DNA of 37,502 nucleotides, from IMG/VR virus record IMGVR_UViG_3300001487_000052, positions 1 through 37,502 of that record; one strand, 5' to 3'. Of this stretch, positions 1 through 21,337 are shown piece by piece. Source of the stretch: a virus (lineage: Duplodnaviria; Heunggongvirae; Uroviricota; Caudoviricetes). The stretch's first letter is position 1. Every line of letters starts with the position of its first letter. A program made the position numbers and the translations under genes. Below the pieces are notes generated by a model that was not told where the DNA came from, did not search any database, and worked only from the letters and a program-made list of their open reading frames with translations.

Positions 1-520
1 AACGATAGATAAAGAGCGGAGTGTAAACGTAGCGATAAAAGAAAAAATAGAAAGAAAAGATAGGTAAGAGATATAGTGGAGAGACTGAATGAATGAGCGA
101 GCCAATGCGAGCGAGTGAATGAAGAAATGAAACGGATAATGAACCGAGCGAAACGAAGTGAAGCGAGGGAAATGTGTATCTCTTATAGTGAAGAGGGTTG
201 CCCACCTGACCAGTCGTTTCACTCCTGCCCAACCCTCATTCAAACATGAACAGAAGGAAATGATATCTAATACTCCCTTAAGGGTTTCTCTAAAAATATA
301 GCTTAGATATAGTGGAATGAAGGGCAAAAATTTTCTTGAGCAACCGACCGAAGGGAGGGGCGAGAGAATAATTTGATGACCGTAATGAAACAAGTAAATG
401 AATGAAAGGACGAACGAAACGGAGAGCGAAGTGTTTAACGTAGCTCTTAGTGTAGTGAGGAGTGTAGTGAATGATAAAGCTAGGATGTTAAGAGGAGAGT
501 GTAGTAAGGGGTTTTATCTT
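1..520 (+). other. Non-coding purine-skewed tract A with GNA-triloop / tandem G.A hairpins (putative structured ssDNA, origin-like); may extend left of the window
   Basis: No ORF >=60 aa in 1-805. Hairpin 144-168 CCGAGCGAAAC-GAA-GTGAAGCGAGG and hairpin 344-358 CCGACC-GAA-GGGAGG, which extends to about 328-374. Perfect 8-bp inverted repeat GAGGGTTG (193-200) / CAACCCTC (230-237). Recurrent words GAGTGTAGTGA, CGAACGAAAC, GAAGCGAG. Confidence 0.65.
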
Positions 521-611
521 TCTATTTAGAGGAGATCAAAAGAAGTGTCATCTTTTATTATATAGGTCCTATTACTAACGGATCCTCCTAAGTTTTAGTG
601 CTAAAAATGAC

Positions 612-744
612 AGCGACCAGTGAAAATGACTTAAAATTGATGATTTTTATCAAAATAGGGCAAATTTAGGGTGTTTTGAGGACATAGAAAGAGTATAGCG
701 ACCAGTTTTTAGGGGACTTTTGATATGAAACCCTTATATATGTA
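612..744 (+). promoter_or_regulatory. Regulatory cassette: two AGCGACCAG boxes plus TTTTGATATGAAACCCTTATATATGTA promoter
   Basis: Boxes at 612 and 697, CCTTATA at 732-738. The same architecture and spacing recur upstream of the portal gene (21358-21490). Confidence 0.6.
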
Positions 745-805
745 AAGGATAAAAATTCCTTTATTTTTCTAAACTGAACTCTGTATTAACTAAAATATTA
801 AAAAT

Positions 806-2854
806 ATGAATAAACAAACTATTATTGTACCAAAGGGAATTAGGTATATTAGTGAGTGGGATAAATTAGAGACTGGTAAAAGACTAAGAGATAAACTGCC
901 TCAGGATGCTCCCTACATAATGAACAAAACTATTACTGGATGTGGTTACACCGAGTATTGTATTACTAACTCATTTCCTACGATTATCTGTTCACCTCGA
1001 TTAGTTCTTTTAGAGAATAAAGAGGACCAGCATAAAGACATGGAAAATCTTCTGTATCTAAGAAACGAATATGATACTTTTGAATCTTTCGATAAAGATA
1101 TTTCTAAGGATGATGATAAGGGACTTCATACAGAACCAAAAGAAAAGAGTGAAGAAGAAAAGAAGAAGGCAGAAGAATATACTAAGTATTTAAAAAAGAA
1201 AATTCGAGATCATATTGAGCTTTGTTATTTTAAACTTCATAAAAGTCCAAAATTCCTTGTTACTTATGATTCTTTTAGGAGAATTAAAGAAGAGCTAGGA
1301 GAATCTATCAATACTTATCAAGTAGTCGTAGATGAATTTCAATCAATTTTTTGTGATAGTCGTTTCAAGTCTGATACAGAAAATAATTTCCTTTTGAATA
1401 TTCGAGGTCTTAAAAAAGTATGCTATTTATCAGCTACCCCTATGATCGACAAATATTTAGAGATGCTGGATGAATTTAAAGATCTCCCCTACTATGAACT
1501 TGATTGGGCTACTGAAGATCCTGGTAGAGTAATTAAACCCTACCTAAAAACTAAACTGATTACTCCGAAAAAAAGTTTGGTTGGTGAAGTATGTAAGATT
1601 GTAAATACTTACAAGGAAGGAAAATTTGAAAAGATAACACGAGCCTCGGAAGACGGATCATTTGAAGAGGTGTATAGTAAGGAAGCTGTTATCTATGTTA
1701 ATTCCGTAAAGAACATCTGTGATATTATTCGAAAGTGTGAGCTGACTCTAGAAAACACTAACGTTCTTTGTTCAGATGATCCGGAAAATGAAAAGAAGGT
1801 AAAATCTGCTTTCAAAAAGAGCGATACTACAATAACAAAGGATACTAAGTGCATTGGTAAAGTCCCAAAAGAGGGTGAACCCCACAAGATGTTTACCTTA
1901 TGTACTAGAACAGTTTATCTTGGGGCGGACTTTTATTCAACCAATGCTAGATCATTTATATTTAGTGATGCTAATGTAGATTGCCTTTCAGTTGACATTA
2001 CTCTCGATCTTCCCCAAATTCTAGGTCGTCAAAGGTTAGAAGAAAATCCTTGGAAGAATAGAGCAGAGCTTTACTATAAACTAAATACGAAAGAGATTAG
2101 TCAAGAAGAATTTAAAATATACCTAGACAAAAAAGAAGAGGCCACTAATAGACTGTTAAGTGCATTTGAAAAGGTTAGTAGAGAAGAACAGCACGAATTA
2201 GCACTAACCTATAGAAGAGATGCAAAACGGAGTAGCTATAGATATAATTTTGTAGCCGTTGATGAGCATTCTGGATCTGATCTTAAACCTATCTTTAATA
2301 ATCTAGTAATGATATCTGAAATGAGATCGTTCGACGTTCAACAGATAGATTATAAGGATAGATTTAGTGTTTTTACTACTCTAACAGAAAGCGCTTATGT
2401 AAATGATATAAATCAACACCTAGACCATATTTACTCTCTTACCTATTTATCTGATAAGTTTAAATATATTTGTTCACTAGATGATTCCACTATTTCATCT
2501 TGTTTGCCACATCTTCCAGAAATCTTTACTAACTACTATACCGTATTAGGTTCAGAGAGAATTAGAGCTTTGGGTTATAATATTACCGACATGAAAAGAG
2601 AATATGAGGGTGTGATAGGTAACCAAAATATTGATATTAAATCAATCATTCTCAGCTCGTTTAATGTTGGGGGAAGATACACTAAAACCTCTATTAAAGA
2701 AAAACTATCATCAATATACAGTTCATCTGGTTATTCTAAGACTCCTAAAGCAACAGACCTAGAGAACTACTTTGAGGTTAGTGTCTGTAGAATTCCCAAT
2801 AAAGAAACTGGTAAAAGAGATGCTGGATATGAAATTTTGAGTATTAAAGAGTAG
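806..2854 (+). CDS. SF2 (DExD/H-like) helicase-related protein with degenerate Walker A, copy 1
   Basis: 682 aa. Motif I-like TITGCGYT, motif II VVVDEFQ, motif III YLSATP, motif V TRTVYLGADF, motif VI PQILGRQR. Paralogue of 16577..18664. Confidence 0.75.
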   Translation: MNKQTIIVPKGIRYISEWDKLETGKRLRDKLPQDAPYIMNKTITGCGYTEYCITNSFPTIICSPRLVLLENKEDQHKDMENLLYLRNEYDTFESFDKDISKDDDKGLHTEPKEKSEEEKKKAEEYTKYLKKKIRDHIELCYFKLHKSPKFLVTYDSFRRIKEELGESINTYQVVVDEFQSIFCDSRFKSDTENNFLLNIRGLKKVCYLSATPMIDKYLEMLDEFKDLPYYELDWATEDPGRVIKPYLKTKLITPKKSLVGEVCKIVNTYKEGKFEKITRASEDGSFEEVYSKEAVIYVNSVKNICDIIRKCELTLENTNVLCSDDPENEKKVKSAFKKSDTTITKDTKCIGKVPKEGEPHKMFTLCTRTVYLGADFYSTNARSFIFSDANVDCLSVDITLDLPQILGRQRLEENPWKNRAELYYKLNTKEISQEEFKIYLDKKEEATNRLLSAFEKVSREEQHELALTYRRDAKRSSYRYNFVAVDEHSGSDLKPIFNNLVMISEMRSFDVQQIDYKDRFSVFTTLTESAYVNDINQHLDHIYSLTYLSDKFKYICSLDDSTISSCLPHLPEIFTNYYTVLGSERIRALGYNITDMKREYEGVIGNQNIDIKSIILSSFNVGGRYTKTSIKEKLSSIYSSSGYSKTPKATDLENYFEVSVCRIPNKETGKRDAGYEILSIKE

Positions 2855-2880
2855 GAGATAATATTTCTTCTACTCTTCTT
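2847..2880 (+). terminator. Intrinsic terminator after helicase-like gene 1
   Basis: AAGAGTAGGAGA / TCTTCTACTCTT stem followed by a T-rich run. Confidence 0.65.
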
Positions 2881-2916
2881 TCAAATCCTTCTTTCACACT
2901 CTCCACAAACTCAAAA

Positions 2917-2923
2917 CCTTATA
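2917..2923 (+). promoter_or_regulatory. CCTTATA phage promoter motif for the MoxR-VWA operon
   Basis: AAAACCTTATAAGAG, about 50 nt upstream of ATG 2973. The motif recurs at other transcription-unit starts. Confidence 0.55.
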
Positions 2924-2972
2924 AGAGAATATAAAATTAACAAAACATCAAAAAATACAAAAACATTAAAAA

Positions 2973-4848
2973 ATGGCAATTAAAAAGCAAGATTCAATTA
3001 ATGTGAGAATTTTCATGGCTCTCAAGGTTTCTGAGATGTCGAATGTTCCTGCTTTGATCATGTCTAACCCCGGTTTATAACTTAAGCCGCATATAGCAGT
3101 AATGTTATAATGAAAAGTGGGCAAATACGGTGAAGTCTGTGATGATAATACCGTGTTAACTAATGAAATTGCGCAAGGTTCATTAGTAGCGTAGAGCGTA
3201 GGAGGTGAATAAATATAATCCTCCCAAGAGTGTCCACCAGCCTCTAATAATAGGAGGTTGAAAATGTACGCCGAGCAATCATTAATTAAGAAGTGGTTGA
3301 GCTAGGGGATAAAAAGCCCTTAGGATAACAAAACTGGTTGGAAAGACAAGTACTATAGAGATGTACGCAAAACTCAGGAAAGACGAGAAGGGGAGACCTA
3401 TGGATGTTGTAGTTCTTCGTGGTAACTCTGAAAGTCCCGAAGCGATCCATGGCTATGAAACTGTCTCAACCGCACCTGTAAAACCTGGCGAACCTGTTAT
3501 TTCTTCTCATACTCGTCCTTCGTGGATGCAGAGGATTCTTGACAACTATGCGCAGGGTATCAGAACTATCTTGTTTTTGGATGAGCTCACGACGGCCAAT
3601 GAGTATGTACAGGCTGCTTTGTTGATGCTGATTTTTGACAGGAAGTGTGGTGTAGAGAGTTTGCCGCCGATTTCTCATTGTCTTATTGTGGCTGCGGGTA
3701 ACTATATGAACAACCTGACAACCTCTATGACTATGATTTCGCCGGTTCTCAATCGTTTCATGATTTTCAATGTAACTCCCTCTGTTGATGACCTTGGGGA
3801 TTTTCTCTGTAAGTATAAAGGAGCGATGACGAGTGGTAAGATTGTAGACCACTTAGACGAGGTAGAGAAGCAGTTGGAGGCTCTAGACAAACAGGAGCTT
3901 ACGATTAGTGAGACGAATTATAACAAGATCGGAGAGTATTTTGAGAAGTCCATTTCAGAGACTACCCGACTCTTGATGACGAAAGCTGGAAAAATTGATC
4001 TTTCTGTGACTAACCTGAAGGATCTTTATGGTGACGTTGATGATGACGATCCCAATCTTTACGGTTTTCCCACTTTCCGAACCTTGAATTATCTTCGTGA
4101 TATTAGTATTGCCTGTTATAAGTGTTTTGGAAAGCATGGTATTCAGTCCGATAATTTCCGCGCCATGATAAATGGGTTATGTGGTGTAGGTCTTACGAAA
4201 GAAACTAAGGGCTCACAGGTTATTATTAAAACCCATAAAATCGGCGCGGACTATCATGAATCGTTGACTAAGACCGCTGTTGAACTGGATAAATTAGCAA
4301 GCTCCAAACTCCCCGAATATATTGACTATTTTAACGGGATGATTAACACTGCGACTTCCACTGACCGTCCTGCAAAGACTCGTGGTAAATTCAGTACCCC
4401 CGAACTCCAAGCTTTCAAGAATAAGCTGGATGAGATGTGTAAGGATTCGGAGATGAAGAGTATAGAGAAGCCGTTAGAAGCTGATCTTGTTGCTAAGTTA
4501 GGGGATATCTTAAATGATTCTTCTAAGTTTATCCCGACCCTGAAGTATGATACTACTACTGACGGATCTGATCTGAATAAAGCTTTGGCTGATGCTGGAC
4601 TTACTGTAGAGGTTGCTGCTGGTTATGTTGCCACTTGGAATGACTTAACCAGAGCCTACAACATGATGCACAGATTCATTAACCTTGATCAGTGGAATTA
4701 TCCTACCTCAACTAAAGATATCGTCTCCACTCTCGGAAAACAACTGGGAAAGACGGGAATGAAGTTGAAGGCAATGAAGCGTATCATTCAGACTGCTACC
4801 CCGGGGAGTGGAAATCTTATTCCTGAAATTGAATCTATCGTATCGTAA
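2973..4848 (+). CDS. MoxR-like AAA+ ATPase, spliced: exon 1 2973-3074, exon 2 3337-4848 (537 aa)
   Basis: Joining the exons restores Walker A LIMSNPG|VGKTS in frame. Walker B ILFLDELTT, sensor VAAGN and SPVLNRF lie in exon 2. Adjacent to a VWA gene. The ORF-track start at 3361 misses the N-terminus. Confidence 0.88.
3075..3336 (+). ncRNA. Group I intron (262 nt, no internal ORF)
   Basis: 5' exon ends in U, paired U.G with IGS AAGCCG (P1), and the intron ends in G. P3 GTGGGCA/TGTCCAC, P4 ACGGT/ACCGT, P6 CTAATGAA/TTCATTAG, P7 G(A)GCGTA/TACGCC, P7.1 GGAGG/CCTCC, P8 CAGCCTC/GAGGTTG, P9 hairpins CAATCAT/GTGGTTG and CTAGGG/CCCTTAG. Confidence 0.9.
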
Positions 4849-6917
4849 TGAAACGGACAAAAGCTGAATTAGAACTCATTAAAAACTTCATAGACAATAC
4901 CTACTCGCGTTTTGGAATGAGGTTGTTGGTAAATGCTGATAAAGTATATGACCCAACAGACCCAAATTCCGCCTTAGGTTATTGTTTCAAGTATACGGAT
5001 CCTGTTCTTGGGAGTGTTGTATATAAGATTGAGTGCTCTAAGATTGGTATTGAACATACTGATTATAGAGTCTTAATGCATGAATACGGACACATCTACT
5101 TGGGACATCTTGAAGGAATACATGAGGACCTAGATGCTCAAATCTGCCTCACTCTCGATCAATATAGAGAGGAATTAATAGAGGAGATTAATCAGAAGTG
5201 CGGTATAGATTTTGCTGATAAACTTCTGGAGCGTATTATAGATGATCCGCAACTCAATCACAGTCTTCATAATATAGCTATGGACATGGAGGTTAATTCT
5301 AGTGTCTTATCTATAGAGGACCTTGATGAGATGGAGATGGATATAAGTTCTGTGATGCCTAAGTATGAAGAGGAAATGCTTAAGTACTTAGGGGATCATA
5401 CAGAGGACGAAGAGATTAAAAAGCAAATCCAAGACCAGCTAAACAAATACCAGTCTGAGTCTAAGATTAAGCTTATCCATCCTACACGTTATTGGTTAGA
5501 TGAGAATAATCCCTTCCCTGACAACCTGACTTATCCTGAATACCTCCTCCTTATCATCCAGCACCTTGATCAGTTTGTAAAGATGTTGGTTTCGATTAAG
5601 ATGGGAGGAAATGGTGACACTTCTCAGGTTTCACAACAGGATATTCAGGATGCTCTCAATAACATTCTCGATAAACTCCAAGGAAAATCAGAAGCATACA
5701 AGCAAGGATATCGAGATGCTATAAGAGATGCACAACAGAACGGTCAGGGTCAACAGCAAGGTCAGCCCCAGCAAGGACAAGGAAATCCGCAACAAGGAAT
5801 GGGAATGCCTGGTCAAAGTCAAGGTCAGGGTCAACCTACGCCTGGCGGAGGAGCTGGACAGGGGCAACCTCAACAGCAACAGGGAGGTGGTAGTGGTCAA
5901 GGTAATTCTCAAGACCAAGCCGACTATGAACAAGGATACCAAGACGCCCTAAGAGACATGGCCAATGCACAAAACGGTAATGGTCAAGGTCAGGGTCAAG
6001 GAGGTATGCAGAGTCTTTCGGATCTCATGAATGATATGGGTATGACTGATTCTGGAAGTAACGGAAATAGTCAACCTGGAAGTGGGCCTCAAGGATCTAG
6101 TCAACCTGGGGGATCTGGAAAGCCTACGAATGATGGTAGAACAGAGAATCCCTATAAAGGCATGAGAGAGGATCCCACCCAAAATCCCAACTATTCGAAA
6201 GACCATAGAACTGATTCTCGAGATGAAGCAGACAAAAAGCGTGAACTCGGACAGATTCATTCTAAAGGTGGTCTAGGTTGTGGATCTGGTGGTGGTCCTG
6301 GATATACGAGAGAGGTTGAGAAAGACTTGGATGATGTTGAGATGGCACTACAGGAGGTTATGCAAAATGTGAAGAAGAGAGTTGTTAAGATGGCTACTAC
6401 TAAGGACAATATGAAGAACTATAATCGTGGTATCATACGTACTGTTATAGCTCCGAGTTTTAGTAGGAAGATCACGATTTGCAATGAACCTAAAATTGTA
6501 TACCTCATTGACATTTCCGGATCTATGGACACCAGACTTATTGATAGATGCTTAGGAACTATCGCAAGAAGTATGAAAAAGCTCAGTCGTGGTCTTAAGT
6601 ATGATATCATTACCTGGAGCACATGTCTAGGGGAACACATTAGAGACATTGACCCAAGACACCCAATAACAAAGGTATCTGGGGGAGGTGGAACTAGCAT
6701 CGGACGTGGAATTCAATACTTTAAGGACAACTATGGACCTGAAGCTATTCTAGTCATTATATCCGATTTTGAAGACTATCTTGAAGAGTGGCATGCTGTA
6801 GAAAGTACTATGGATAACTACTCTATGTATGGCTTCAACTACGGAAACGGAAGCTGGTATGATAGTTCTAAAATTGACTGGAAAAATCTTAAGGTTCGCA
6901 AATTTAAGGACTATTAA
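4848..6917 (+). CDS. MoxR-associated metallopeptidase-like / VWA domain protein (DUF2201-type architecture)
   Basis: 689 aa. N-terminal HEYGH (HExxH), central Gln/Gly-rich linker, C-terminal MIDAS YLIDISGS, GGGGT and ISDFE. Translationally coupled to MoxR (TAATG). Confidence 0.85.
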   Translation: MKRTKAELELIKNFIDNTYSRFGMRLLVNADKVYDPTDPNSALGYCFKYTDPVLGSVVYKIECSKIGIEHTDYRVLMHEYGHIYLGHLEGIHEDLDAQICLTLDQYREELIEEINQKCGIDFADKLLERIIDDPQLNHSLHNIAMDMEVNSSVLSIEDLDEMEMDISSVMPKYEEEMLKYLGDHTEDEEIKKQIQDQLNKYQSESKIKLIHPTRYWLDENNPFPDNLTYPEYLLLIIQHLDQFVKMLVSIKMGGNGDTSQVSQQDIQDALNNILDKLQGKSEAYKQGYRDAIRDAQQNGQGQQQGQPQQGQGNPQQGMGMPGQSQGQGQPTPGGGAGQGQPQQQQGGGSGQGNSQDQADYEQGYQDALRDMANAQNGNGQGQGQGGMQSLSDLMNDMGMTDSGSNGNSQPGSGPQGSSQPGGSGKPTNDGRTENPYKGMREDPTQNPNYSKDHRTDSRDEADKKRELGQIHSKGGLGCGSGGGPGYTREVEKDLDDVEMALQEVMQNVKKRVVKMATTKDNMKNYNRGIIRTVIAPSFSRKITICNEPKIVYLIDISGSMDTRLIDRCLGTIARSMKKLSRGLKYDIITWSTCLGEHIRDIDPRHPITKVSGGGGTSIGRGIQYFKDNYGPEAILVIISDFEDYLEEWHAVESTMDNYSMYGFNYGNGSWYDSSKIDWKNLKVRKFKDY

Positions 6918-7474
6918 TGATTGAGAAGAGCAGAATACAAGAACTAATTAAAGTATTTTATCAACAGCCTTTCAAGATCTTCTATGTAAACTCGGTAGAT
7001 GGAGAAACATTTATAAAGCCCACAGGATTATTCATTAGCCTAGGACTTACAACATCGATGAGAACAATAGAAGGACTTAGGGATGTGATTTCCAATACAT
7101 ATCCGGAAAGTAATCCTCTTGTCGTGGAGCTTTCTAGTAAGTGTATGACAGGAGATCAATACCTGAATACTATAACAGACAATCAAAATCCACAACCCTA
7201 CGTCATTAGTGAGTTTCCAGAGGATTCATTTGATAAGACTATGGCGGAGAATGAGTTGGTGAAGCTTAGAGAGATGATCAGAGAAAACAAAAATACTACT
7301 CTCTTAGCCGCCACTCAAAAACTCCAAGAACTCATAGATAGACTAGGACAAGGTGATGGTTGGGAAACTCACAGAATCATAAAACTAGACTCCGATTACA
7401 AGATTTTTCATAAAGTTGCCAATTATAAAAGAGAGGGTAACTTGGAGCTTAGGATCGGAATTTATGTAAAGTAA
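6917..7474 (+). CDS. Hypothetical protein, third gene of the MoxR-VWA operon
   Basis: 185-aa ORF, TAATG-coupled, followed by a terminator. Confidence 0.75.
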   Translation: MIEKSRIQELIKVFYQQPFKIFYVNSVDGETFIKPTGLFISLGLTTSMRTIEGLRDVISNTYPESNPLVVELSSKCMTGDQYLNTITDNQNPQPYVISEFPEDSFDKTMAENELVKLREMIRENKNTTLLAATQKLQELIDRLGQGDGWETHRIIKLDSDYKIFHKVANYKREGNLELRIGIYVK

Positions 7475-7483
7475 AACAAACAA

Positions 7484-7523
7484 AAAAGAAATAATTGATA
7501 GTAAAATACCAGTTATTTCTTTT
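7484..7523 (+). terminator. Intrinsic terminator
   Basis: AAAAGAAATAATTG / CAGTTATTTCTTTT stem with a T tract. Confidence 0.65.
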
Positions 7524-7538
7524 ATTTATTTAAGGACT

Positions 7539-8168
7539 ATGAAAAATTGGATAAAAATATTAATCGCCTTAGTCCTTGGTTTTATTATAGGTTTGATAGT
7601 TATAAAACCCAAGACAACTATAGAAGAGGTAACTATAGAAAAACCTGTATATTACCAAGACTTAGTTACGATACATGACCTGGAAAACTTGGTGGAACAG
7701 AAAAACTTAGAAATCCGGGAGTTAAAGAATAGGGTCCAGGAGGTAAAAGAGGTTGTTATTATAGAGAAAGAACAAATACAAAAACTTCCTCCTGATTCTG
7801 GTGTAGTAAAACTTAGGGAATTTTTAAAGGGTTATACAGAAACCCCCTTAGATACATTCCCCACACTTACTTCAGATTCTCTAGTTCTTCTTGATAATGA
7901 AAACCTGAGAGATATAAATAGTGTCTTTATGGATTATTTCGGAGCTGTAGAAATTATGTTTGATCAAGAAGAAATTATATACAACGATTCAATAGTTATA
8001 GGAAGTCTTGATTCTATAATAGGAATTGAAACAGGGATAAAAGAAAACTTAGAGACAGCACTAACCCGAGAGAAGAAGAGAAAGAATATCTGGATGGGGG
8101 TTGGAATTGGTGCTACGATTACTACTTTAATATTAGGAGTGCTTAGTTATGGTAGAAGTGGTAATTAA
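7539..8168 (+). CDS. Membrane-anchored coiled-coil protein (spanin-like topology possible)
   Basis: Hydrophobic N-terminus (WIKILIALVLGFIIGLIVI), coiled coil, hydrophobic C-terminus (IWMGVGIGATITTLILGVL). Confidence 0.55.
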   Translation: MKNWIKILIALVLGFIIGLIVIKPKTTIEEVTIEKPVYYQDLVTIHDLENLVEQKNLEIRELKNRVQEVKEVVIIEKEQIQKLPPDSGVVKLREFLKGYTETPLDTFPTLTSDSLVLLDNENLRDINSVFMDYFGAVEIMFDQEEIIYNDSIVIGSLDSIIGIETGIKENLETALTREKKRKNIWMGVGIGATITTLILGVLSYGRSGN

Positions 8169-8553
8169 TTATGACGTAGAAAATAAGTTGTACAAGGCAT
8201 ATGAACCAAGTACCGACACATTATTCGTTACTTCAAGCTTAGGAGACACATTTAATAAACTAGAAGCCCATCTTTTACAATTTGGTCTCATTGCTGGTTC
8301 ATTACTGTCTGAGCAAAATATAACATACCACCTAGACTCCCCTACTTTTATAGCCATTGTTCAGAGTAATGCAAATCTTCTGAAACGACTAAATAATGCT
8401 CCTTCCGGTTTTATGGTTAGTTCTCAGAGACTTGGATTAGGAACAGGACAACAGGTGGGAGGTGACTGGAAAAAACGAGGACAACGAAAGAATAATGGTA
8501 CTTTTTCTAAATCAAATCTAGGAAATGCAAGTAAAAAATTTGGAGAGAAATGA
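8149..8553 (+). CDS. Hypothetical protein
   Basis: 134-aa ORF in an overlapping-gene operon. Confidence 0.7.
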   Translation: MVEVVINYDVENKLYKAYEPSTDTLFVTSSLGDTFNKLEAHLLQFGLIAGSLLSEQNITYHLDSPTFIAIVQSNANLLKRLNNAPSGFMVSSQRLGLGTGQQVGGDWKKRGQRKNNGTFSKSNLGNASKKFGEK

Positions 8554-8969
8554 TTAACTTATTTACTTCTTATGCTACAAAAGATAACTTAGAAAACCTA
8601 GTGTCTCATAGTTATCTTCCCGTTATCATACTAAGAAACATACGAAGCTCTAAACTCCTTTCTCCTTATTCTGATACTTCTATACATCTCAGAGAATTAT
8701 CACCATCCACAGAGCTATTTCATAAGTACCGTGATGGATTGATAGGAGTAGAAGAATACCATCATCAATACCTCTTGGAACTTATAGAGAGGAAATTATC
8801 TTTCTATGATATCCGAAAACGACTAATCTTCCTTAATAACCTAGTTTCAGCAGAGGGAGTAGTTCTTTTAGGATATGAAGAAGATCCTGAGAAATGCCAT
8901 AGAAGTGCTCTTGCTAGGTTTCTTAAGGAATTATGGAAACAGGAGATATACGAATGGAACGGAAATTAA
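8550..8969 (+). CDS. DUF488 family protein
   Basis: LSPSTELFHKY..EEYHHQYLLEL and VVLLGYEEDPEKCHR match the DUF488 LLCxE..CHR signature as I recall it. Confidence 0.7.
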   Translation: MINLFTSYATKDNLENLVSHSYLPVIILRNIRSSKLLSPYSDTSIHLRELSPSTELFHKYRDGLIGVEEYHHQYLLELIERKLSFYDIRKRLIFLNNLVSAEGVVLLGYEEDPEKCHRSALARFLKELWKQEIYEWNGN

Positions 8970-9232
8970 AAGAATGGTTAGATAAGGAAGGGGTTTGTTA
9001 TCTTGGACTTACTTATACGGAATGTTATGGTGGTCTTATATCAGTAACTTTCCTAACACAGTACGACCTAGACCTTTACTTAGACATGATAAAATATAAG
9101 TCGAGGTTTAATAAATCTGAGTTCCTAGTTATCCCCGAAACACTTACTGTAATTGTTAATGGAGGGGCAGCAAATGAAATTATACGAACTGTTAGAGGAG
9201 TTTATAATTCTCCAACTACCCTCTCAGCCTAG
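8933..9232 (+). CDS. Hypothetical protein (true start may be the second Met, MERKLKEW)
   Basis: ORF fills the operon gap. Confidence 0.6.
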   Translation: METGDIRMERKLKEWLDKEGVCYLGLTYTECYGGLISVTFLTQYDLDLYLDMIKYKSRFNKSEFLVIPETLTVIVNGGAANEIIRTVRGVYNSPTTLSA

Positions 9233-9590
9233 TCTTAAGTTTCGAGGGGACATAGCTTTAGGAAATTTTCAAATAGCTAGATTTTCTGACCTATATTGTG
9301 AGGTTATTTTCTTGACTACTGGAGAAAGTTTAAGATTAGAGAAAGAACTGGTACGCTTATGTTCTAGTTTTTATAAGTCCAGAGAAGAAGAAATAGTTAG
9401 AGCAGAAGATGTTGTTGGGTCTGAACTTTGGGAATTAGTGGTAGTTTGTTCTAGAATAATGATACAGAAAGATATAGATCCCACCCAACTTAAGAATACA
9501 GGAAAACTACGGAACTGGCTTAAAGAAAGATTTAAAATTTCCTTAGGTCCCGTTACATATTTTTCTAGAGATAATATAATAAAGATATGA
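9174..9590 (+). CDS. Hypothetical protein
   Basis: ORF-track 9153..9590; ATG at 9174 preferred; ATGA-coupled to RNase H. Confidence 0.65.
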   Translation: MKLYELLEEFIILQLPSQPSLKFRGDIALGNFQIARFSDLYCEVIFLTTGESLRLEKELVRLCSSFYKSREEEIVRAEDVVGSELWELVVVCSRIMIQKDIDPTQLKNTGKLRNWLKERFKISLGPVTYFSRDNIIKI

Positions 9591-10069
9591 AAAGATTGAC
9601 TATATATACAGATGGAAGTCACTTGAAACACACTTCAGGGAGACTAGGAATAGGGGGTGTACTTCTAGATGACTTCGATAATATTCTCTCCGAGTTTTCT
9701 GAAGAACTTAGTATAGAATGGCTTAGAGAGAAATATGGTACGTCTGATGTTAGTAATCCAACCTGTGAAATGTTAGCTAATCTGTATGCCCTAGTGAAAT
9801 TTAGAGATATAATAAAAGGATGTTCTAGTCTCACAATGAAAGCTGACTATGAGGGAGTACAGAAATGGAATACAGGGATATGGAAAGCTAGACTACCATA
9901 CATAAAAGCTATAAAAGATCAAACCACCGAAGAAATAGAAAGACAAGGATTAAAAGGGAAAATACACTTTGAATGGGTGAAAGGACATCAAAAGAAAAGC
10001 ATCCTAAGTCGAGATAGTAGGTGGAATGATTACGTAGATAAACTGGCTAAAGGTATTAAAGAAAAATGA
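9587..10069 (+). CDS. rnhA: Ribonuclease HI
   Basis: IYTDGS, NPTCEMLA, ADYEGV, EWVKGH and WNDYVDKLAK give the D-E-D-H-D catalytic set of type 1 RNase H. Confidence 0.9.
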   Translation: MKRLTIYTDGSHLKHTSGRLGIGGVLLDDFDNILSEFSEELSIEWLREKYGTSDVSNPTCEMLANLYALVKFRDIIKGCSSLTMKADYEGVQKWNTGIWKARLPYIKAIKDQTTEEIERQGLKGKIHFEWVKGHQKKSILSRDSRWNDYVDKLAKGIKEK

Positions 10070-10374
10070 AAAAAGAATGTTGTACCTGTTGTATAGATGG
10101 TACCTGGAGATATGAGGACTTGATTGGAGCGAAGGTGAGAGTTAAGAGTCTACCAGTATATAATCGACTAACCGCTATTTCTTCAGATATCGAACATACA
10201 ATAGAAGATTTGATATTCCAGATTAGTGAAACAGGAAAAACTATATGTATTGTCAGACTTAAAGGCTTAGATGCTGATTTTACCTTTAAAGATCTGGAAA
10301 TAACTAGTCTGAGAAGCCCAAAAACAATTTGTGATGATGAGACTATAACAGGAACAGTATTAGCAAATGGTTAA
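10066..10374 (+). CDS. Hypothetical protein
   Basis: 102-aa ORF, ATGA-coupled. Confidence 0.7.
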   Translation: MKKECCTCCIDGTWRYEDLIGAKVRVKSLPVYNRLTAISSDIEHTIEDLIFQISETGKTICIVRLKGLDADFTFKDLEITSLRSPKTICDDETITGTVLANG

Positions 10375-10543
10375 GAAAGTTAGAAAAGCAAGTCAGGCTA
10401 GACCTAGAACAGGTGGACTTGGAAAAAGACCAAATACTAGCCACGTAAAACAAGTCGCTAAACATGAGAAAGACCCCATGGCTGACAAAGTAATAGGATC
10501 TGAACTCGATAGTGATGATATTGATGTTATAATACTAAATTAA
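10367..10543 (+). CDS. Small hypothetical protein (58 aa), not in the ORF track
   Basis: MVKKVRKASQARPRTGGLGKRP...DIDVIILN; exactly fills the gap between its neighbours. Confidence 0.6.
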   Translation: MVKKVRKASQARPRTGGLGKRPNTSHVKQVAKHEKDPMADKVIGSELDSDDIDVIILN

Positions 10544-10550
10544 CAAGAAG

Positions 10551-10940
10551 ATGAACATAATAAACAAATTACAGGTGGTATTTAAACCAGGAGGAAAGCT
10601 TAGTTCTGATGATCTTAACTCCCTGGTAACAGCAATTAATACCCTCAACTACACAGTAAATAACATCCTAAAAAGCTACTGTGATATTAATCAGGAAACT
10701 GGTGTACAAAAGGCCTATACTCTAGGGGAAGCTATTAAACTCGTCCCGGAAGGTAGAAGAAGCTTTACTATGAAAATCAGGTTTATCGAAAATGCTGATA
10801 TTGTTGGTGCTAATATCTATAACATTAGATATGCTGAATACTACTACACCGGTCCTAAGGCTTTTGATAATAGAACCTGGGAAAATGAAGCAAACTGGAC
10901 TAAGAGCGTCCCTAACCTAATTGATGGAGGTACTTGGTAA
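10551..10940 (+). CDS. Hypothetical protein, possible virion/tail-fibre-associated
   Basis: N-terminal FKPGGKLSSDDLNSLVTAI resembles fibre-anchor motifs. Confidence 0.5.
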   Translation: MNIINKLQVVFKPGGKLSSDDLNSLVTAINTLNYTVNNILKSYCDINQETGVQKAYTLGEAIKLVPEGRRSFTMKIRFIENADIVGANIYNIRYAEYYYTGPKAFDNRTWENEANWTKSVPNLIDGGTW

Positions 10941-11185
10941 TGAAAGGAAGTAGCTATAAGGAAACAGAATGGAAGAATGGAGAAACGAGACTCAATGCTA
11001 AAAATATGAACAACATTGAGGCTGGCATAAAGACTCTCTTCGAAAATGCTATTGACCAAGATACAGTAGAAGTCGTATATGAAGCTCCCGCAGAACCTGA
11101 TAATAGTAAGCTGTATTTTGTAATAGATGATGAGAATGTTTTAACTAGACTTATTGTTTTCGGAAAGGAGATTATAGTAAGATGA
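10934..11185 (+). CDS. Hypothetical protein, possible tail-fibre/baseplate-associated
   Basis: YKETEWKNGETRLNAKNMNNIEAGI resembles the W..G....A..LN.IE.GI motif of phage fibre/baseplate proteins. Confidence 0.5.
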   Translation: MVMKGSSYKETEWKNGETRLNAKNMNNIEAGIKTLFENAIDQDTVEVVYEAPAEPDNSKLYFVIDDENVLTRLIVFGKEIIVR

Positions 11186-11748
11186 CTTGGGATATTGAAA
11201 CTTGTTATTATGAGTATCAAGAAGCAACATCCTATCTTCTCAAGTCTCTAGGAATAACACAACTAGATCACGTAAAAAATAGAGAAGTCCTTTATCCTTA
11301 TTACACTCAGATTATAAAATATCTAAACCGTGAATTGATGTGTAATACGGAGGACAATATAAAAGCTAAGGTCCAGAAAATAATTGAACTAATGGATGCT
11401 GGTTCTGAGAAAATCTGTACAACTAGAGCAAGAGAACTAGGTGAAGAAGTTGGAATTGAAGTGACCTCTGAATACTATGACCAGGATAGATTTGTATTTT
11501 CTTGGGCTGATCTTATGGGTACCTTAAGTCTCCGCTTAAAATTCCAGTATGCTTATCTTTGGAAACAGGAATATGATGATAGCTGTGGTTGTACTTGTGG
11601 TAAGGGACAAACTGAAGAAGACTATGAATCTTGGGTTTCTGGCGTATATCCGGAAGATTATGAATACGATAGAACAAACTATTACCGGACTAATACAAAT
11701 TGGGGAACCAGTGAAGATAGGATTTGTGACTGTTATAAGAAGAATTAA
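11182..11748 (+). CDS. Hypothetical protein with Cys-rich acidic C-terminus
   Basis: 188-aa ORF, ATGA-coupled, ends at a terminator. Confidence 0.7.
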   Translation: MTWDIETCYYEYQEATSYLLKSLGITQLDHVKNREVLYPYYTQIIKYLNRELMCNTEDNIKAKVQKIIELMDAGSEKICTTRARELGEEVGIEVTSEYYDQDRFVFSWADLMGTLSLRLKFQYAYLWKQEYDDSCGCTCGKGQTEEDYESWVSGVYPEDYEYDRTNYYRTNTNWGTSEDRICDCYKKN

Positions 11749-11752
11749 AAAG

Positions 11753-11788
11753 AAAGGTAGAAAGGATTATATTTCCAATCTACCTTTT
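11753..11788. terminator. Bidirectional terminator between convergent genes
   Basis: AAAGGTAGA / TCTACCTTTT stem with A and T flanks. Confidence 0.65.
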
Positions 11789-12046
11789 TATTATCACCTC
11801 TGCACCAGGTAACCCACTAAGACGATTAATTCTGTTGGCAAGGCTTTCTTTACATATTACAGTACTAAAGCCCATAAAAGTTTTTGTCATTACCTTAGGG
11901 GATAATCTTTTTCTAGGGACTTTCATCACCTTCTTAACATATTCTTTATAGTTGGTTTTGTCTTGTGTAGGAATGAAAGCATGAATCTTATATACTAGAT
12001 CTCCATTAGATAATGAAAATCTTAGCAATAATACTCTAGTTTTCAC
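11780..12046 (-). CDS. Small basic hypothetical protein (about 88 aa, GTG start)
   Basis: Part of track ORF 11780..12148. The GTG lies 3 nt downstream of a minus-strand CCTTATA. Confidence 0.5.
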   Translation of the reverse strand: MKTRVLLLRFSLSNGDLVYKIHAFIPTQDKTNYKEYVKKVMKVPRKRLSPKVMTKTFMGFSTVICKESLANRINRLSGLPGAEVIIKR

Positions 12047-12049
12047 ATG

Positions 12050-12069
12050 TATAAGGCTTTTCCTTATAA
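12050..12069. promoter_or_regulatory. Back-to-back CCTTATA promoter pair
   Basis: TATAAGG-cttttt-CCTTATA between divergent genes. Confidence 0.6.
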
Positions 12070-12074
12070 GTGTA

Positions 12075-12638
12075 ATGTACTTAGTTATTTTAGAAATTAC
12101 GTTAAATGAGAAAGGGAAAAAGCTAAGAGGAAAAACAGACACTCCCATAATCTATTACCTGAGTGAAGAGAAGGCCTTTAATATGGACGAAGCTTCAGAA
12201 GAAATTTTTAAGCAGATTGGTATAGATGTGGTGGATACTTTTAATCATCTTAAAACCATTCCTCTTCCTGGAAAACCTCTAGAAAATATTAAGACTGGAG
12301 ATTATGTTAGAGTATTAAAACTTGGAGATAGTACAGTTTCAATCATCCTAGGAACTACAAAAATTATAAAAACACTAGGAGATAACTCTGTAGAAACCTT
12401 AAATCCATTCATAATCTTCGATAACCAAGGAATTTGTATCCATAAGGGAACATGTGATTGTGTGGCCTACTATCTACAACAAACAGAAGAGAAAGACTTA
12501 GAGGAGGCAAAAAGGAAGGACTCTATAATACTTGCTAGGAATGAGGTGTCTTCATTTTTTATGAGAAAAGCCAATGTTGATAAGTTGGAGGGAGATGATG
12601 TTCTTTCTATATATGAGATTATAAAAAAAATATTATGA
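12075..12638 (+). CDS. Hypothetical protein, tandem paralogue 1 of 3
   Basis: Shares ITLNEKGKKL, IG..VVDTF..LKTI, GD.V, F...G.CI and YL..TE blocks with the next two ORFs. Confidence 0.75.
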   Translation: MYLVILEITLNEKGKKLRGKTDTPIIYYLSEEKAFNMDEASEEIFKQIGIDVVDTFNHLKTIPLPGKPLENIKTGDYVRVLKLGDSTVSIILGTTKIIKTLGDNSVETLNPFIIFDNQGICIHKGTCDCVAYYLQQTEEKDLEEAKRKDSIILARNEVSSFFMRKANVDKLEGDDVLSIYEIIKKIL

Positions 12639-13192
12639 TAATCCTAGAGACGTGTAAACAGTTTATAGTATTCATAAAAATCCTTCTTAATGGGGCGGGA
12701 CAAGAATTACTAGGGAGAAGCATTCATGTTATCTATACTGTCAGAAATTCCCCTGCTCTCGACATATCAGAAGTAGTTGATATAGTTTATGAAAAAGTAG
12801 GTCCCCAACTTGTAGATAACTTTGAAATAATAAAATCAATACCGAGGACATTTTATGTAAATCCTCAGAATCTAATAAAAGGGGACTACATCATCATCCA
12901 TAAACACTTCTACTCTTTTGACACAATGAGGTTTAGGGGAATAATAGAGGGTGTACAGAATAAACACATTACTGTTTGTGGCCACCAGTTTTCATTAGAT
13001 GGTGTTTGTATAGAATACGACCCTGGAATAATTTCTATATATCACCTAGAAGCACCAACGGATGAAGAGATGGAGGAATATATAGAGACGGCAAGAAGAG
13101 AAGAATTATTGAAGGAAATATCCGGGAAATTATCTCGTAGAACCTTAGGAACACTAGAAAAAGTAAATAAATTCTTAGACGAAAATGGATAG
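12635..13192 (+). CDS. Hypothetical protein, tandem paralogue 2 of 3
   Basis: ILLNGAGQEL, VGPQLVDNFEIIKSI, KGDYI, FSLDGVCI, HLEAPTDEE. Confidence 0.75.
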   Translation: MIILETCKQFIVFIKILLNGAGQELLGRSIHVIYTVRNSPALDISEVVDIVYEKVGPQLVDNFEIIKSIPRTFYVNPQNLIKGDYIIIHKHFYSFDTMRFRGIIEGVQNKHITVCGHQFSLDGVCIEYDPGIISIYHLEAPTDEEMEEYIETARREELLKEISGKLSRRTLGTLEKVNKFLDENG

Positions 13193-13790
13193 AGTATATA
13201 TAGTAAAAATTAAGCTTGGAGAAAAAGCTAAGAAACTTTGTTATAGAAATGAGGTTCTTGTTCCTATCTCATCCCAAGGTAGACTGGACTATTATGAGAT
13301 CCTAGACTCAGTAGGAAATCAGTATGGAGCGGATAATGTAGTGTCTCTAGAGGTCCTTCATACTATTTTTCCTGACTTCGAGTTCTTACAGTCCTTAAGC
13401 CCACATACATTAGTTGCTGTAAGAAAACTCCATGAGGTCCTTAAACACTCTACAAATCTTTATAATAATGAAAATGGGAGTGAGATTTTTGAGGTTAATG
13501 AGATTTTTGATAGAGAAAAAGAAGGGCGTAAAATAGTAAGAACAGATAGTTGGTCAGATTGTTGTTTTTATATGGATACTGGACTATCTGAACCCGGAGA
13601 AATTATTACAAGCCCCTATGAAATAAGTTTTTTAGATAAACCAACAGAAAGAGAGATACAGAACTTTAGAAACAGAAGAGATAAAAACATAAAAGTGGCT
13701 GATATAAAACGGTGGGTAAATAATACTGATGATATAGAAATAATTAATACGGTTTGGGATATAATAAATAAAAAAGAAGAAGGAAATTAA
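13185..13790 (+). CDS. Hypothetical protein, tandem paralogue 3 of 3 (more diverged)
   Basis: IKLGEKAKKL, YGADNVVSLEVLHTI, FLDKPTERE. Confidence 0.7.
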   Translation: MDRVYIVKIKLGEKAKKLCYRNEVLVPISSQGRLDYYEILDSVGNQYGADNVVSLEVLHTIFPDFEFLQSLSPHTLVAVRKLHEVLKHSTNLYNNENGSEIFEVNEIFDREKEGRKIVRTDSWSDCCFYMDTGLSEPGEIITSPYEISFLDKPTEREIQNFRNRRDKNIKVADIKRWVNNTDDIEIINTVWDIINKKEEGN

Positions 13791-14710
13791 TCCTTCTCTT
13801 TATTTTTGTTCTCCGAAATCATCTTTACGAGAGAACCATATTTTGCAATTAATTCATCCTTAGCCTCATCTCCCCACATAGTATGAACGAGAACCCCATG
13901 TTTGTGTAAGGAGATTATAAATGGATCTTCAGGGCGGACACGAATTCTCACGCTCTCTATCTTATTTATCATCTCTTTTTCAGGGGCCGCTATGAAGAAA
14001 TCATTACTGAGTTCCCCACTTCCACGATATTGTTTAGTAGTAATGTCTCCATGATTCCAATACTCCGGAAAGTATGCGTTAAATAAATCTCTACCTTGCC
14101 AGATATAATTAGCATTTTCGAAACATTGCTCAGGAGATATATTTCTAGCTATAAACGGGAATCTATGAATAAACTCAAATGCTGGGGTCTTTTTTATCGC
14201 CCTCGCATCCTCTCTTCCGTCTCGATTAAGAGAAATCCCCTGTATTTTCCAATAGTGCACAGAATAGTCAATAATATCTTTATGTACCAGGTTTTTCCTA
14301 GTTTCCAAAAGGATATTAATACTATTCTCTGGGATAGTACCTGTAAAATCCCTAAGATAACCTACAACAAGATTATATTTCACCAAGAGCTCTAAGAACC
14401 GAGGATAACTTATGAAAATTATATTATCCCCGAAGACCTCTATAGCCTTTGTGAGAAACCTTAGGGCCTCGATGTTAAAAGCTCTCTGTTTCTTAGTCTC
14501 CTGTTCCGCCTTAAAAATCCCTTCTATCATCTTTGCATTTGTCGTATTAACCAGGCCGAGTTGTTGTAGCGCCTCTAGCTCTGTACCCGCATTAGGAGGA
14601 ATTATAATGGACTGGAGATCACTTTCAAGTTCCTGCGCATAACTTAAACCGGCCTTAGATATCGACGTATGAATAACTTTAGCCGAAATACTTTTTGTAA
14701 TTCCAAACAT
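13787..14710 (-). CDS. Hypothetical phage protein
   Basis: 307-aa ORF with its own CCTTATA promoter; C-terminal DPFI..GVLVHTMWGDEA block. Confidence 0.75.
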   Translation of the reverse strand: MFGITKSISAKVIHTSISKAGLSYAQELESDLQSIIIPPNAGTELEALQQLGLVNTTNAKMIEGIFKAEQETKKQRAFNIEALRFLTKAIEVFGDNIIFISYPRFLELLVKYNLVVGYLRDFTGTIPENSINILLETRKNLVHKDIIDYSVHYWKIQGISLNRDGREDARAIKKTPAFEFIHRFPFIARNISPEQCFENANYIWQGRDLFNAYFPEYWNHGDITTKQYRGSGELSNDFFIAAPEKEMINKIESVRIRVRPEDPFIISLHKHGVLVHTMWGDEAKDELIAKYGSLVKMISENKNKEKD

Positions 14711-14727
14711 AATTTTTCTTCTTTCTA

Positions 14728-14750
14728 TATAAGGCGTTGAGATCCTTATA
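14728..14750. promoter_or_regulatory. Back-to-back CCTTATA promoter pair
   Basis: TATAAGG-cgttgagat-CCTTATA between divergent genes 14710(-) and 14757(+). Confidence 0.6.
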
Positions 14751-14756
14751 AATGAT

Positions 14757-15278
14757 ATGAAAAAGACATCGATTGTATTGATTATTGTAGCAGCTTTTAT
14801 TGCTATTATTGTTGGTATGTATTTCTCTTACAACAATAAAGAAGTATCCCTAAGAAATCAGTCAGACGCACAGATTGGAAAAATAGAAGGAGTATATGAT
14901 AAGATGTGGAAGGTGATACAACAAAAAGCACAAGTAACATCTGAATATAAAGACGCATTTAAAGAAATCTATCCAGAACTTATAGCCGGTCGTTATTCTG
15001 GGGAGTCTATGATGAAGTGGATCCAAGAAAGCAACCCCGAATTTGATGCTTCCCTGTATAAAGATCTGATGCAAAGTATAGAAATCCTTAGAACAGAATT
15101 CCAACACGCACAAGAAAAAGAACTCGACATAATAAGAGAACATAAGAATCTCTGTTCTACATACCCAGGAAAATGGTTTGTTTCTAAGAAGGAACCAATC
15201 GAATATACAATCATTTCCTCCACCAAGTCTAAAGAAACTATGGAAACCGGACTTGATGATGATATAAACGTTTTCTAA
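14757..15278 (+). CDS. LemA-like membrane-anchored helical protein
   Basis: Single N-terminal TM helix, helical body, C-terminal YPGKWFV similar to the LemA FP..F motif; paired with a downstream membrane protein. Confidence 0.5.
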   Translation: MKKTSIVLIIVAAFIAIIVGMYFSYNNKEVSLRNQSDAQIGKIEGVYDKMWKVIQQKAQVTSEYKDAFKEIYPELIAGRYSGESMMKWIQESNPEFDASLYKDLMQSIEILRTEFQHAQEKELDIIREHKNLCSTYPGKWFVSKKEPIEYTIISSTKSKETMETGLDDDINVF

Positions 15279-16363: not shown

Positions 16364-16541
16364 TTTAATAGTTATATCCAGTCTTATATTGGCTGGGATC
16401 TTTTTTATGTTATTATTGTTAACTGTTTTTTATGAACCCGCCAAGAGAAAGACGACAAAGATTGCGATTTATGCTGTGGTTAGTCTAGTAGTGTGGTGGT
16501 TTATAATTGCAGGTATTGGTATGTTTTTTGTAGTAGAGTAA
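16341..16541 (+). CDS. Small two-TM membrane protein
   Basis: 66 aa; two hydrophobic segments separated by KRK. Confidence 0.6.
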   Translation: MNTATWINLIVISSLILAGIFFMLLLLTVFYEPAKRKTTKIAIYAVVSLVVWWFIIAGIGMFFVVE

Positions 16542-16544
16542 ATA

Positions 16545-16578
16545 AAAGAAGGGGATAGAAATTAATCTTCCCCTTTTT
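16545..16578. terminator. Bidirectional terminator
   Basis: AAGGGGA / TTCCCCTT stem with A and T flanks between convergent genes. Confidence 0.65.
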
Positions 16579-19370: not shown

Positions 19371-19379
19371 CGAAGACTT

Positions 19380-21328: not shown

Positions 21329-21337
21329 CTATACAAA

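Follow-up and report, generated by a model that had tools for sequence, protein, structure and literature searches.

Purine-rich non-coding leader upstream of an SF2 helicase-like gene in a rumen phage contig

Leader A and the SF2-like gene family

The stretch analysed here (the window) comprises 37,502 nucleotides (nt) of a Caudoviricetes phage, positions 1 to 37,502 of IMG/VR record IMGVR_UViG_3300001487_000052. It is the first 37.5 kb of a 101.5-kb contig with a completeness of 27% (CheckV), and the sequence-bearing samples are rumen and animal-gut metagenomes. The contig begins inside leader A, the region preceding gene 1, which encodes a protein resembling superfamily 2 (SF2) helicases. 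Leader A is a non-coding, strand-asymmetric and repeated leader of a gene cassette, akin to structured sister leaders by vocabulary and linkage.

The upstream context was obtained from L008, an independent 154-kb assembly with an identical gene-1 protein (window coordinate = L008 minus 9195). An upstream gene of 158 amino acids (aa) ends at L008 9071, and a terminator-like hairpin with a T-run is located at L008 9053-9087. The intergenic region before the start of gene 1 at 806 is 929 nt long and non-coding, and a purine tract accounts for about 600 nt of it. The tract starts 80 nt ahead of the window, just past the upstream terminator, with the conserved box TAACTTAGGAGCTTCCC, the leader start box also written GGAGCTTCCC. 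The tract ends at about 526, with the promoter-like box and the 5'-untranslated region (5'-UTR) hairpin of gene 1 lying downstream. An earlier note on this DNA had described a purine-rich tract at 1-520 upstream of the SF2-like gene. The tract is real: purines make up 76% of positions 1-180, and the contig-wide maximum over 150 nt falls here, by a narrow margin (0.78, followed by 0.75 in coding DNA). The interval 1-520 lies inside the tract, but the contig end cuts the latter, which extends from 80 nt before the window to about 526. The features of the leader, of gene 1 and of its paralogues are as follows (negative numbers are positions before window position 1).

1 to 319, reaching -80 upstream, + strand: conserved purine-rich block of leader A, purine fraction 0.65-0.76
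95 to 114, + strand: hairpin 1 of the earlier note, GC steps alternating with tandem G.A, loop CAAT
144 to 168, + strand: hairpin 2 of the earlier note, cGAAg loop at 154-158, purine zipper
193 to 237, + strand: Watson-Crick hairpin with an 8-bp stem, sole pyrimidine-rich piece of leader A
320 to 464, + strand: variable block of leader A with hairpin 3 (344-358, CCGAAGG at 348-354) and a long stem (328-374)
412 to 447, + strand: copy 2 of an internal direct repeat, GAACGAAACG ... AGAGCGrAGTGT..AACGTAGC; copy 1 at -6 to 34
450 to 526, + strand: conserved 3' block, word GTGTAGTrA three times (450, 462, 499)
613 to 763, + strand: promoter-proximal part, GCGACCAG boxes at 613 and 698, promoter-like box GAAACCCTTATATATG at 727-742, 5'-UTR hairpin at 743-763
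806 to 2854, + strand: gene 1, SF2 helicase-like, 682 aa, conserved motifs, AlphaFold2 model
16577 to 18664, - strand: paralogue 2, 42% identity to gene 1
18665 to 19379, - strand: leader B of paralogue 2, purine arm paired to pyrimidine arm, core at 19036-19142
contig 68912-71005: paralogue 3
same 154-kb assembly: paralogue 4, 66% aa identity to gene 1

The tract does not code for protein, as all three kinds of stop codon occur in every + frame. An open reading frame (ORF) on the - strand (1..393) was dismissed as a composition artefact, and a 44-aa ORF at 115-249 is broken by a 1-nt indel in the sister copy A', which is described below. Rfam at the gathering score gave no match in the window and, over 1-900, only chance-level hits (E above 2). 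No tRNA was detected in the tract by a tRNA scan. Deposited phage genomes showed no similarity to it, and nucleotide comparison of 1-560 with three related genomes yielded only chance-size matches. An exact-pattern scan of IMG/VR returned nothing; a scan of metagenomes returned only L071, which is the A' copy.

Iteron-type origins are defined by several direct iterons of 17-22 bp, an AT-rich unwinding element and an initiator binding the iterons. The repeats of leader A are words of 9-12 nt in two to four copies each, besides one duplicated segment of about 45 nt, and an A-rich run is present at 38-63. A compositional periodicity of 5 nt was observed from -80 to 176 (z 5.1; shuffle maxima about 3), while leader B has its signal at 6.25 nt instead.

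The promoter-proximal boxes of leader A recur ahead of other genes. The unit GCGACCA(G/C)T...TTTTGATATGAAACCCTTATATATG (window 613-620, 698-705 and 727-742; contig 21442-21546 and 71013-71063) is found before several genes and in relatives, and is likely a phage-specific promoter with upstream boxes. Directly after GAAACCCTTATATATG, a hairpin (window 743-763; L073 7086-7107) is preserved in leader A and its sister copy although both arms differ, TAAAGGA/TCCTTTA versus GTAGAGA/TCTCTAC. It would seem to be a 5'-UTR hairpin conserved with the cassette gene.

Searches of gene 1 in Pfam, PHROGs, NCBIfam and the PDB assigned it to no family. SF2 helicases consist of two RecA-like domains carrying motif I, motif II (DExx), motif III (SAT) and motif VI (QxxGRxxR). 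The SF2 motifs DEFQ, SATP and QILGRQR are invariant in an alignment of 43 sequences. Motif I, with the sequence GCG(Y/F)T (GCGYT in gene 1), has no Walker A lysine. The structure predicted with AlphaFold2 (mean pLDDT 85) was superimposed on the cores of DEAH/DEAD RNA helicases, NS3 and RecQ with Z 13-14.5, about 310-360 aligned residues and an rmsd of about 4. Foldseek matched it to Hel308, Brr2, BLM and UL9 of herpes simplex virus (HSV; 9hgi). The predicted structure is thus that of an SF2 helicase fold, motif I excepted. For the C-terminal 70 residues, weak matches were obtained with the RFX DNA-binding domain (Z 5.8), the origin-binding domain of phage P4 (1ka8, Z 4.5) and the winged helices of MCM8, ORC and Cdt1.

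The genome carries four SF2-like paralogues, every one behind a long non-coding leader, and related phage contigs (27-401 kb) contain three or four each. The link of the tract to the SF2-like gene, proposed in the earlier note, is borne out by the long leaders of all four paralogues and of nearly all 49 loci of relatives, the tract being non-coding and strand-asymmetric. Leader A itself is a long non-coding region in sense orientation before a member of the gene family, and it shares purine words with the other leaders. Some paralogues are closely followed by ORFs of about 330-350 aa that are akin only to the C-terminal part of the SF2-like proteins (G001 86941-87273, G002 72334-72831, G003 2193-3745).

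Strand bias, G.A hairpins and the sister leader A'

In the earlier note, the purine strand was proposed to fold as single-stranded DNA (ssDNA) into a field of hairpins with cGNAg triloops and tandem sheared G.A pairs, acting as an origin, priming or loading signal. The strings quoted for 95-114, 144-168 and 344-358 are letter-exact in the sequence. The strand asymmetry was likewise confirmed: cGNAg occurs nine times on the + strand and not once on the - strand of the whole leader, versus 3.1 in dinucleotide shuffles (P 0.002), with seven and zero occurrences in window 1-520 (2.5 expected, 2000 dinucleotide shuffles, P 0.0075). CCGAAGG at 348-354 is moreover the mini-hairpin heptamer of RSF1010 ssiA (PMC13037366). 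The hairpins themselves do not clearly exceed the shuffle expectation. Stems of at least six Watson-Crick and tandem G.A pairs number 2 versus 0.9 (P 0.23), and N-CGNAG-N' heptamers with Watson-Crick closure 2 versus 0.7 expected (P 0.17). A permissive purine-purine score, fitted post hoc to the rules of the earlier note, yielded six hairpins versus 2.8 (P 0.03) and a summed score with P 0.004.

Nearest-neighbour DNA folding, whose parameters omit sheared G.A pairs, resulted in 0 kcal for 139-173, -1.4 kcal (z +0.3) for 90-119 and 0 to -5 kcal for the proposed hairpins overall. The proposed folds therefore depend wholly on non-canonical pairs. The same method gave -4.4 kcal (z -2.1) for a Watson-Crick hairpin at 423-447. 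The exact heptamer GCGNAGC is absent from both strands of leader A, which has near-cognates instead: ACGAAGT at 153, CCGAAGG at 348 and, closed by G.T, GCGGAGT at 16 and GCGAAGT at 426.

Leader A' precedes paralogue 4 (L073; also L071 and L072). Its homology with leader A extends over the whole interval bounded by the start and promoter boxes, in the form of a mosaic. The comparison of A-type leaders comprises these two distinct copies, with the following identities (window coordinates of leader A).

-109 to -58: 94%
-58 to -6: 33%
-5 to 319: 91% (95% over 1-212)
320 to 464: 52%
465 to 526: 89%

The hairpins of the earlier note fared poorly in this comparison. In hairpin 2 the substitutions C145T and G146A affect one arm only in A', L071 and the contigs from RNA libraries, and are uncompensated. 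Hairpin 3 and its long stem are replaced in A', where they fall in the block of 52% identity, and a variant in DNA run X1, G350A, removes the loop G of hairpin 3. Hairpin 1 is invariant in A' and carries no information on covariation. An excess of cGNAg was not found in A' (5 versus 2.9 expected, P 0.15). The sole positive sign of conservation comes from the sequence of L023, a 71% orthologue, in which ACCGACCGA is followed by GCGAAGC and then by GAGGGA; this arrangement may be drawn as hairpin 3 with a mini-hairpin inserted at the tip. In the Watson-Crick hairpin at 193-237, the stem is unchanged in A', and the loop has substitutions and a 1-nt indel.

The genes adjoining A and A' are only 66% identical at the aa level, so that either constraint or homogenisation by conversion must account for the well-conserved leader blocks. 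In the diverged blocks the purine fraction stays at 0.68-0.72 versus 0.55 genome-wide (0.68 against 0.72 over 320-464). From this survival of purine bias beyond sequence divergence it is argued that strand composition itself matters.

Run contigs from DNA and RNA libraries were aligned over window 1-20000. DNA run X1 has a depth of 537 over 1-667 and of 631 over leader B, at a baseline of 118, which fits a multi-copy element comprising at least A and A' and suggests that the cassettes outnumber the four observed. Breaks between its contigs fall at 720 and 19196, and the genome's own depth is also that of several variant contigs. Assembly breaks or false closure inside leaders were also observed at the start of the IMG/VR contig in A and at the end of L071 in A'. 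An 88-nt 'direct terminal repeat' of a 183-kb relative (L020/L021, ends of G002) sits inside the third leader of that genome.

Leader A may be a functionless dispersed repeat, homogenised by gene conversion or recombination between cassettes, with the purine bias as a mutational or hitch-hiking by-product. The mosaic of near-identical and unrelated blocks agrees with such an origin, as do the assembly breaks inside leaders, the DNA depth of four to five times the baseline and the orthologous leaders of L004 and L023, which are without the tract. A long leader has been kept, however, before the gene family across deep clades, the purine bias persists where sequence identity is lost, RNA libraries from three studies contain the tract, and an ancient core covaries in the sister leaders. 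A repeat devoid of function is accordingly considered improbable.

Sister leaders and the GCGNAGC heptamer in relatives

The leader A words GTGTAGTGA, GAACGAAACG, CGTAGCGA and TATAGTGGA are paired with complementary pyrimidine arms in the leaders of paralogues 2 and 3, leaders B and C. Words of 8-12 nt common to all three leaders are GTGTAGTGA, GAACGAAACGG, CGTAGCGAA, TAGTGGAATG and GAAGCGAG, which are nearly confined to leaders within the 101.5-kb contig. The word GTGTAGTrA also recurs on the opposite strand of leaders B and C. Local alignment of leader A with the other leaders gave matches at the level of words only, the best (z 5.9) with the purine arm of leader B. Leader B forms a long imperfect hairpin with a fold z of -3.4 in sense and -5.4 in antisense.

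A core of defined layout is embedded in the sister leaders: helix P1 (5-9 bp), CCTTCCCG..GCCAC, helix P2 (5 bp, variable insert) and GAACC. In an alignment of eight sequences, 97% of the cells are paired and 13 of the 14 pairs are changed on both sides. None of 500 shuffles reaches this pairing, and slid registers are 35-57% paired. G-U intermediates do not occur in the core helices. A covariance model built on the core, R1, scores leader B with 85 bits. Besides leaders B and C it matches eight loci of relatives, of which seven have E 6e-7 to 6e-22 and L063 is marginal (E 0.61). All matches are in sense orientation, 200-480 nt ahead of the start codon. The core is present in three deep protein clades and is therefore regarded as ancient. 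In leader A, only CTTCCC and GGATTGAAC remain of it; leader A is a purine vocabulary without partner arms or core.

An exact complement of 15 nt, TTAGTGTAGTGAGGA, connects window 447-461 with contig ~68640-68654 (shuffle maximum 12). Its target is the pyrimidine arm of leader C, an arm without a partner in cis, and the complementarity may reflect shared ancestry or pairing in trans. Counts of G.U versus A.C mismatches in crude helices (878 versus 786) are dominated by chance helices and were discarded as uninformative. Directly upstream of leader C, a tRNA-His gene is located (L017 669-743, contig 68168-68242). Leader B (19380-21330, - strand) and leader A' (L071/L073) are each preceded by an array of small genes of 50-120 aa, several with an MKYIVF-like start, which may be variable cargo around the cassettes.

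The relatives comprise 49 loci on phage contigs of 27-401 kb, with a measurable upstream region in 47. The non-coding length is mostly 300-1500 nt among these 47 loci, and six are shorter than 290 nt. The top enriched 7-mers of the 47 leaders (30 kb) versus their flanks are GCTTCGC, CGTAGCG, TTCGCTC and TTCGTTC. Counted on both strands, GCGNAGC occurs 52 times in the 47 leaders versus 2.5 times in dinucleotide shuffles (maximum 8), and 30 of the leaders contain it. Its density is 1.7 per kb versus 0.08-0.18 per kb in the flanking genes. GNA or TNC loops make up 52 of the 80 heptamers of the form GC-xyz-GC. The tetraloop form GCGNNAGC occurs nine times, four of them GNRA, versus 52 for the triloop form. 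GA..GA flanks are present in 14 of the 52 heptamers, many of which cap longer inverted repeats. The orientation is sense in 20 cases and antisense in 32, while CGTAGCG is found 12 times in sense and never in antisense.

The d(GCGNAGC) class of DNA mini-hairpins is reportedly extraordinarily stable, as described by Hirao and colleagues. In this heptamer an outer G-C pair and a closing C-G pair are topped by a sheared G.A pair, and the folded single strand resists heat and nucleases to an unusual degree. Such mini-hairpins are known at the complementary-strand origin of phage G4, at RSF1010 ssiA (CCGAAGG) and at the early promoter of phage N4 (GCGGAGC), and as RNA the hairpin loses much of its stability (PMC13037366, PMC4496689). 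Because of the triloop preference, the occurrence in both orientations and the core without G-U intermediates, a role at the DNA level is favoured for the hairpins of the leader family; these sequence properties lean towards it. With respect to the cGNAg-type hairpins of the earlier note, the family-wide part gained ground, GNA-triloop heptamers being enriched 10-20-fold in the leaders, and the particular hairpins of the window found no support. A hairpin field in ssDNA of the purine strand would be consistent with this enrichment, with the GA..GA flanks and the capping of longer stems, and with the GCGAAGC insert in the L023 counterpart of hairpin 3. Strict hairpins do not exceed chance, however, A' has no cGNAg excess, the changes in hairpins 2 and 3 are uncompensated or destructive and leader A lacks the exact heptamer. 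Of the proposals in the earlier note, the specific field of G.A hairpins has the least support, and as an explanation of leader A it is rather improbable.

The hairpins have a second known counterpart. In the early promoters of phage N4, a stem of 5-7 bp and a 3-nt loop form around the GC-rich heptamer GCGGAGC, and supercoiling extrudes the hairpin (PMC4496689, PMC13037366). Promoters of this type have the hairpin on the template strand, at a set distance ahead of the start, and depend on a single-subunit RNA polymerase of the virion. They share with the leaders a GNA loop, flanking inverted repeats, strand-specific stability of the hairpin and the residence in a double-stranded DNA phage (PMC4496689). 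Hairpins of the leader family might thus be single-stranded promoters for an injected phage RNA polymerase. In several relatives, hairpins of this kind lie 30-100 nt ahead of the start codon, the sense strand reading GCTNCGC. None precedes gene 1, however, where a different promoter-like box is present; the flanks of the heptamer are unconserved beyond GA..GA, and a conserved -17 to +1 context was not found. A search for PF00940 (T7-like RNA polymerase) gave no match in four partial genomes, and since control genomes were equally silent it is uninformative. N4-type promoters are a very improbable explanation.

Transcription and the proposed role of the leader

RNA-library contigs from three studies cover the tract at about 22-238 (X19, depth 8, A'-type letters), 77-215 (X20) and 114-309 (X18). 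Run X19 covers the body of gene 1 at 0-0.9 and expressed genes at 7-14, with several bins at zero, and because of this very uneven cover a uniform carry-over of DNA is unlikely. Leader B has no cover in X19, which, for contigs only, is not taken as absence. Further RNA runs share small numbers of words with the tract and are left out of the evidence. Leader A is probably transcribed.

The element may act as RNA only, made as a discrete transcript or by read-through. It could regulate in cis or be a stable non-coding RNA that, for example, the SF2-like protein binds or remodels, or that pairs in trans with the pyrimidine arms of other leaders. The RNA-library contigs, with a depth near that of expressed genes in X19, agree with this, as do the conserved start box after the terminator, the fixed orientation to the gene together with the sense-only CGTAGCG, and the purine bias of the diverged blocks. 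The best structural matches of gene 1 are DEAH/DEAD RNA helicases, the 15-nt complement points to leader C, and the core helices of the sister leaders covary. Other results are at odds with an RNA: the fold of leader A is not above chance, the loops of the family are GNA triloops in a class of mini-hairpin that is far less stable as RNA (PMC13037366), GCGNAGC occurs in both orientations, the core helices lack G-U intermediates, and a separate promoter-like box for gene 1 follows the tract. Taken by itself, the RNA-only role is doubtful; it is nearly as likely as the reading favoured here.

The favoured reading, which is tentative and falls short of being probable, is that window 1-526 together with the 80 nt before it forms the purine-rich body of a non-coding leader in a repeated cassette of leader and SF2-like gene of a huge rumen phage, and is a candidate cis site for the cognate protein. 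This reading does not need the G.A hairpin field. Leader A would serve as a strand-specific cis platform for its SF2/winged-helix-like protein, with the repeated purine words as possible recognition sites. If the purine tract is transcribed, one strand would become exposed or hybridised, and the protein could then load. Local initiation or priming of replication might follow at several sites of a genome of about 375 kb. A role in multi-site initiation or priming, possibly activated by transcription, is the most coherent guess.

Several observations weigh against the favoured reading. The R1 core was not detected in window 1-805 or in L008, L004, L005 and L006 (E up to 1), and on both strands shuffled sequences fold canonically as well as the whole leader A does (z +0.6, +0.5). 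Because core and fold are absent, the kinship with leaders B and C consists in shared words and linkage. The purine tract is missing from the closest orthologous leaders, L004 and L023, whose genes are 68-71% identical. The high identity of A and A' could come from gene conversion instead of constraint. The gene-1 protein, without the Walker A lysine, may not be a motor, and the likeness of its modelled C-terminus to winged helices is weak, with Z 5.8 or less. The RNA evidence consists of assembled contigs, from which strand and ends are absent.

The closest analogues by mode of working may be HSV-1 UL9 with oriS, the alpha protein of phage P4 with ori, phage T5 D2 and the R-loop origins of phage T4. 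UL9/oriS, P4 alpha/ori-crr and T5 D2 resemble the cassette in that a protein of helicase fold, which binds nucleic acid through a separate C-terminal domain, adjoins a non-coding region of short repeated words, direct or inverted and capable of forming hairpins. UL9 (9hgi) is among the Foldseek matches of gene 1 and the P4 winged-helix domain (1ka8) among the weak C-terminal ones. The matches are, however, generic (SF2 core) or weak (Z 4.5-5.8), and the Walker A lysine is missing in gene 1. Here, four or more diverged copies occur per genome, the leader is strongly asymmetric in purines and pyrimidines, and the likeness is one of sequence and predicted structure.

The G4 complementary-strand origin and RSF1010 ssiA with the primase RepB' (PMC13037366) contain the same heptamer class that is 10-20-fold enriched in the leader family. 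RSF1010 ssiA shares CCGAAGG with window 348-354, and the family follows the logic of sheared G.A pairs, seen in the GA..GA flanks of 14 of the 52 heptamers. Those sites are single hairpins of naturally single-stranded replicons, used by a known primase, whereas the present genome is a large double-stranded DNA and carries the motif in both orientations. Leader A has near-cognates that are unconserved instead of the exact heptamer.

Transcription-primed origins are represented by the R-loops of T4 oriF and oriG, which are resolved by the SF2 helicase UvsW, and by ColE1 RNA II. As in these systems, a transcribed non-coding region lies beside putative replication functions, and a purine-rich transcript would hybridise stably with the DNA and displace the purine strand. 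The promoter of leader A, unlike theirs, is deduced solely from the conserved box, and an R-loop or primer is hypothetical. The Rfam families ROOL and GOLLD, like the present leaders, are several hundred nt long and non-coding, and the sister leaders share with them covarying helices. They differ in that leader A matches no Rfam family and has neither an above-chance fold nor the core.

A wider model can be formulated for huge rumen and gut phages. Each genome would contain several modules in which a strand-asymmetric non-coding leader, rich in GCGNAGC mini-hairpins and in purine words, is recognised by a diverged SF2/winged-helix protein without the Walker A lysine. The modules would constitute a new multi-site, possibly transcription-activated system of initiation or priming, with extruded or displaced ssDNA hairpins as the signal, and the leader of the window would be a hairpin-poor, purine-only variant. 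This model in its entirety is unlikely. For the start of replication and the organisation of early events in uncultured huge phages with genomes of several hundred kb, the cassette is a concrete candidate. The GCGNAGC enrichment would be among the clearest genomic footprints of the mini-hairpin beyond small single-stranded replicons and phage N4. For annotation, the leaders explain assembly breaks and false circularisation at these sites.

Downstream of gene 1, an ATPase gene is probably interrupted. In RNA contigs from two studies, position 3074 is followed directly by 3337, which skips 262 nt (3075-3336). The join fuses a 34-codon ORF (2973-3074) in frame to the ATPase ORF 3361-4848 and rebuilds the Walker A motif NPGVGKTS. 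The last base of the exon is T and that of the skipped part is G. The Rfam group I intron model RF00028 matches 3065-3275 with 32.5 bits (E 9e-7), below the gathering score of 50. The skipped segment 3075-3336 is very likely a small group I intron within the P-loop of the ATPase gene.

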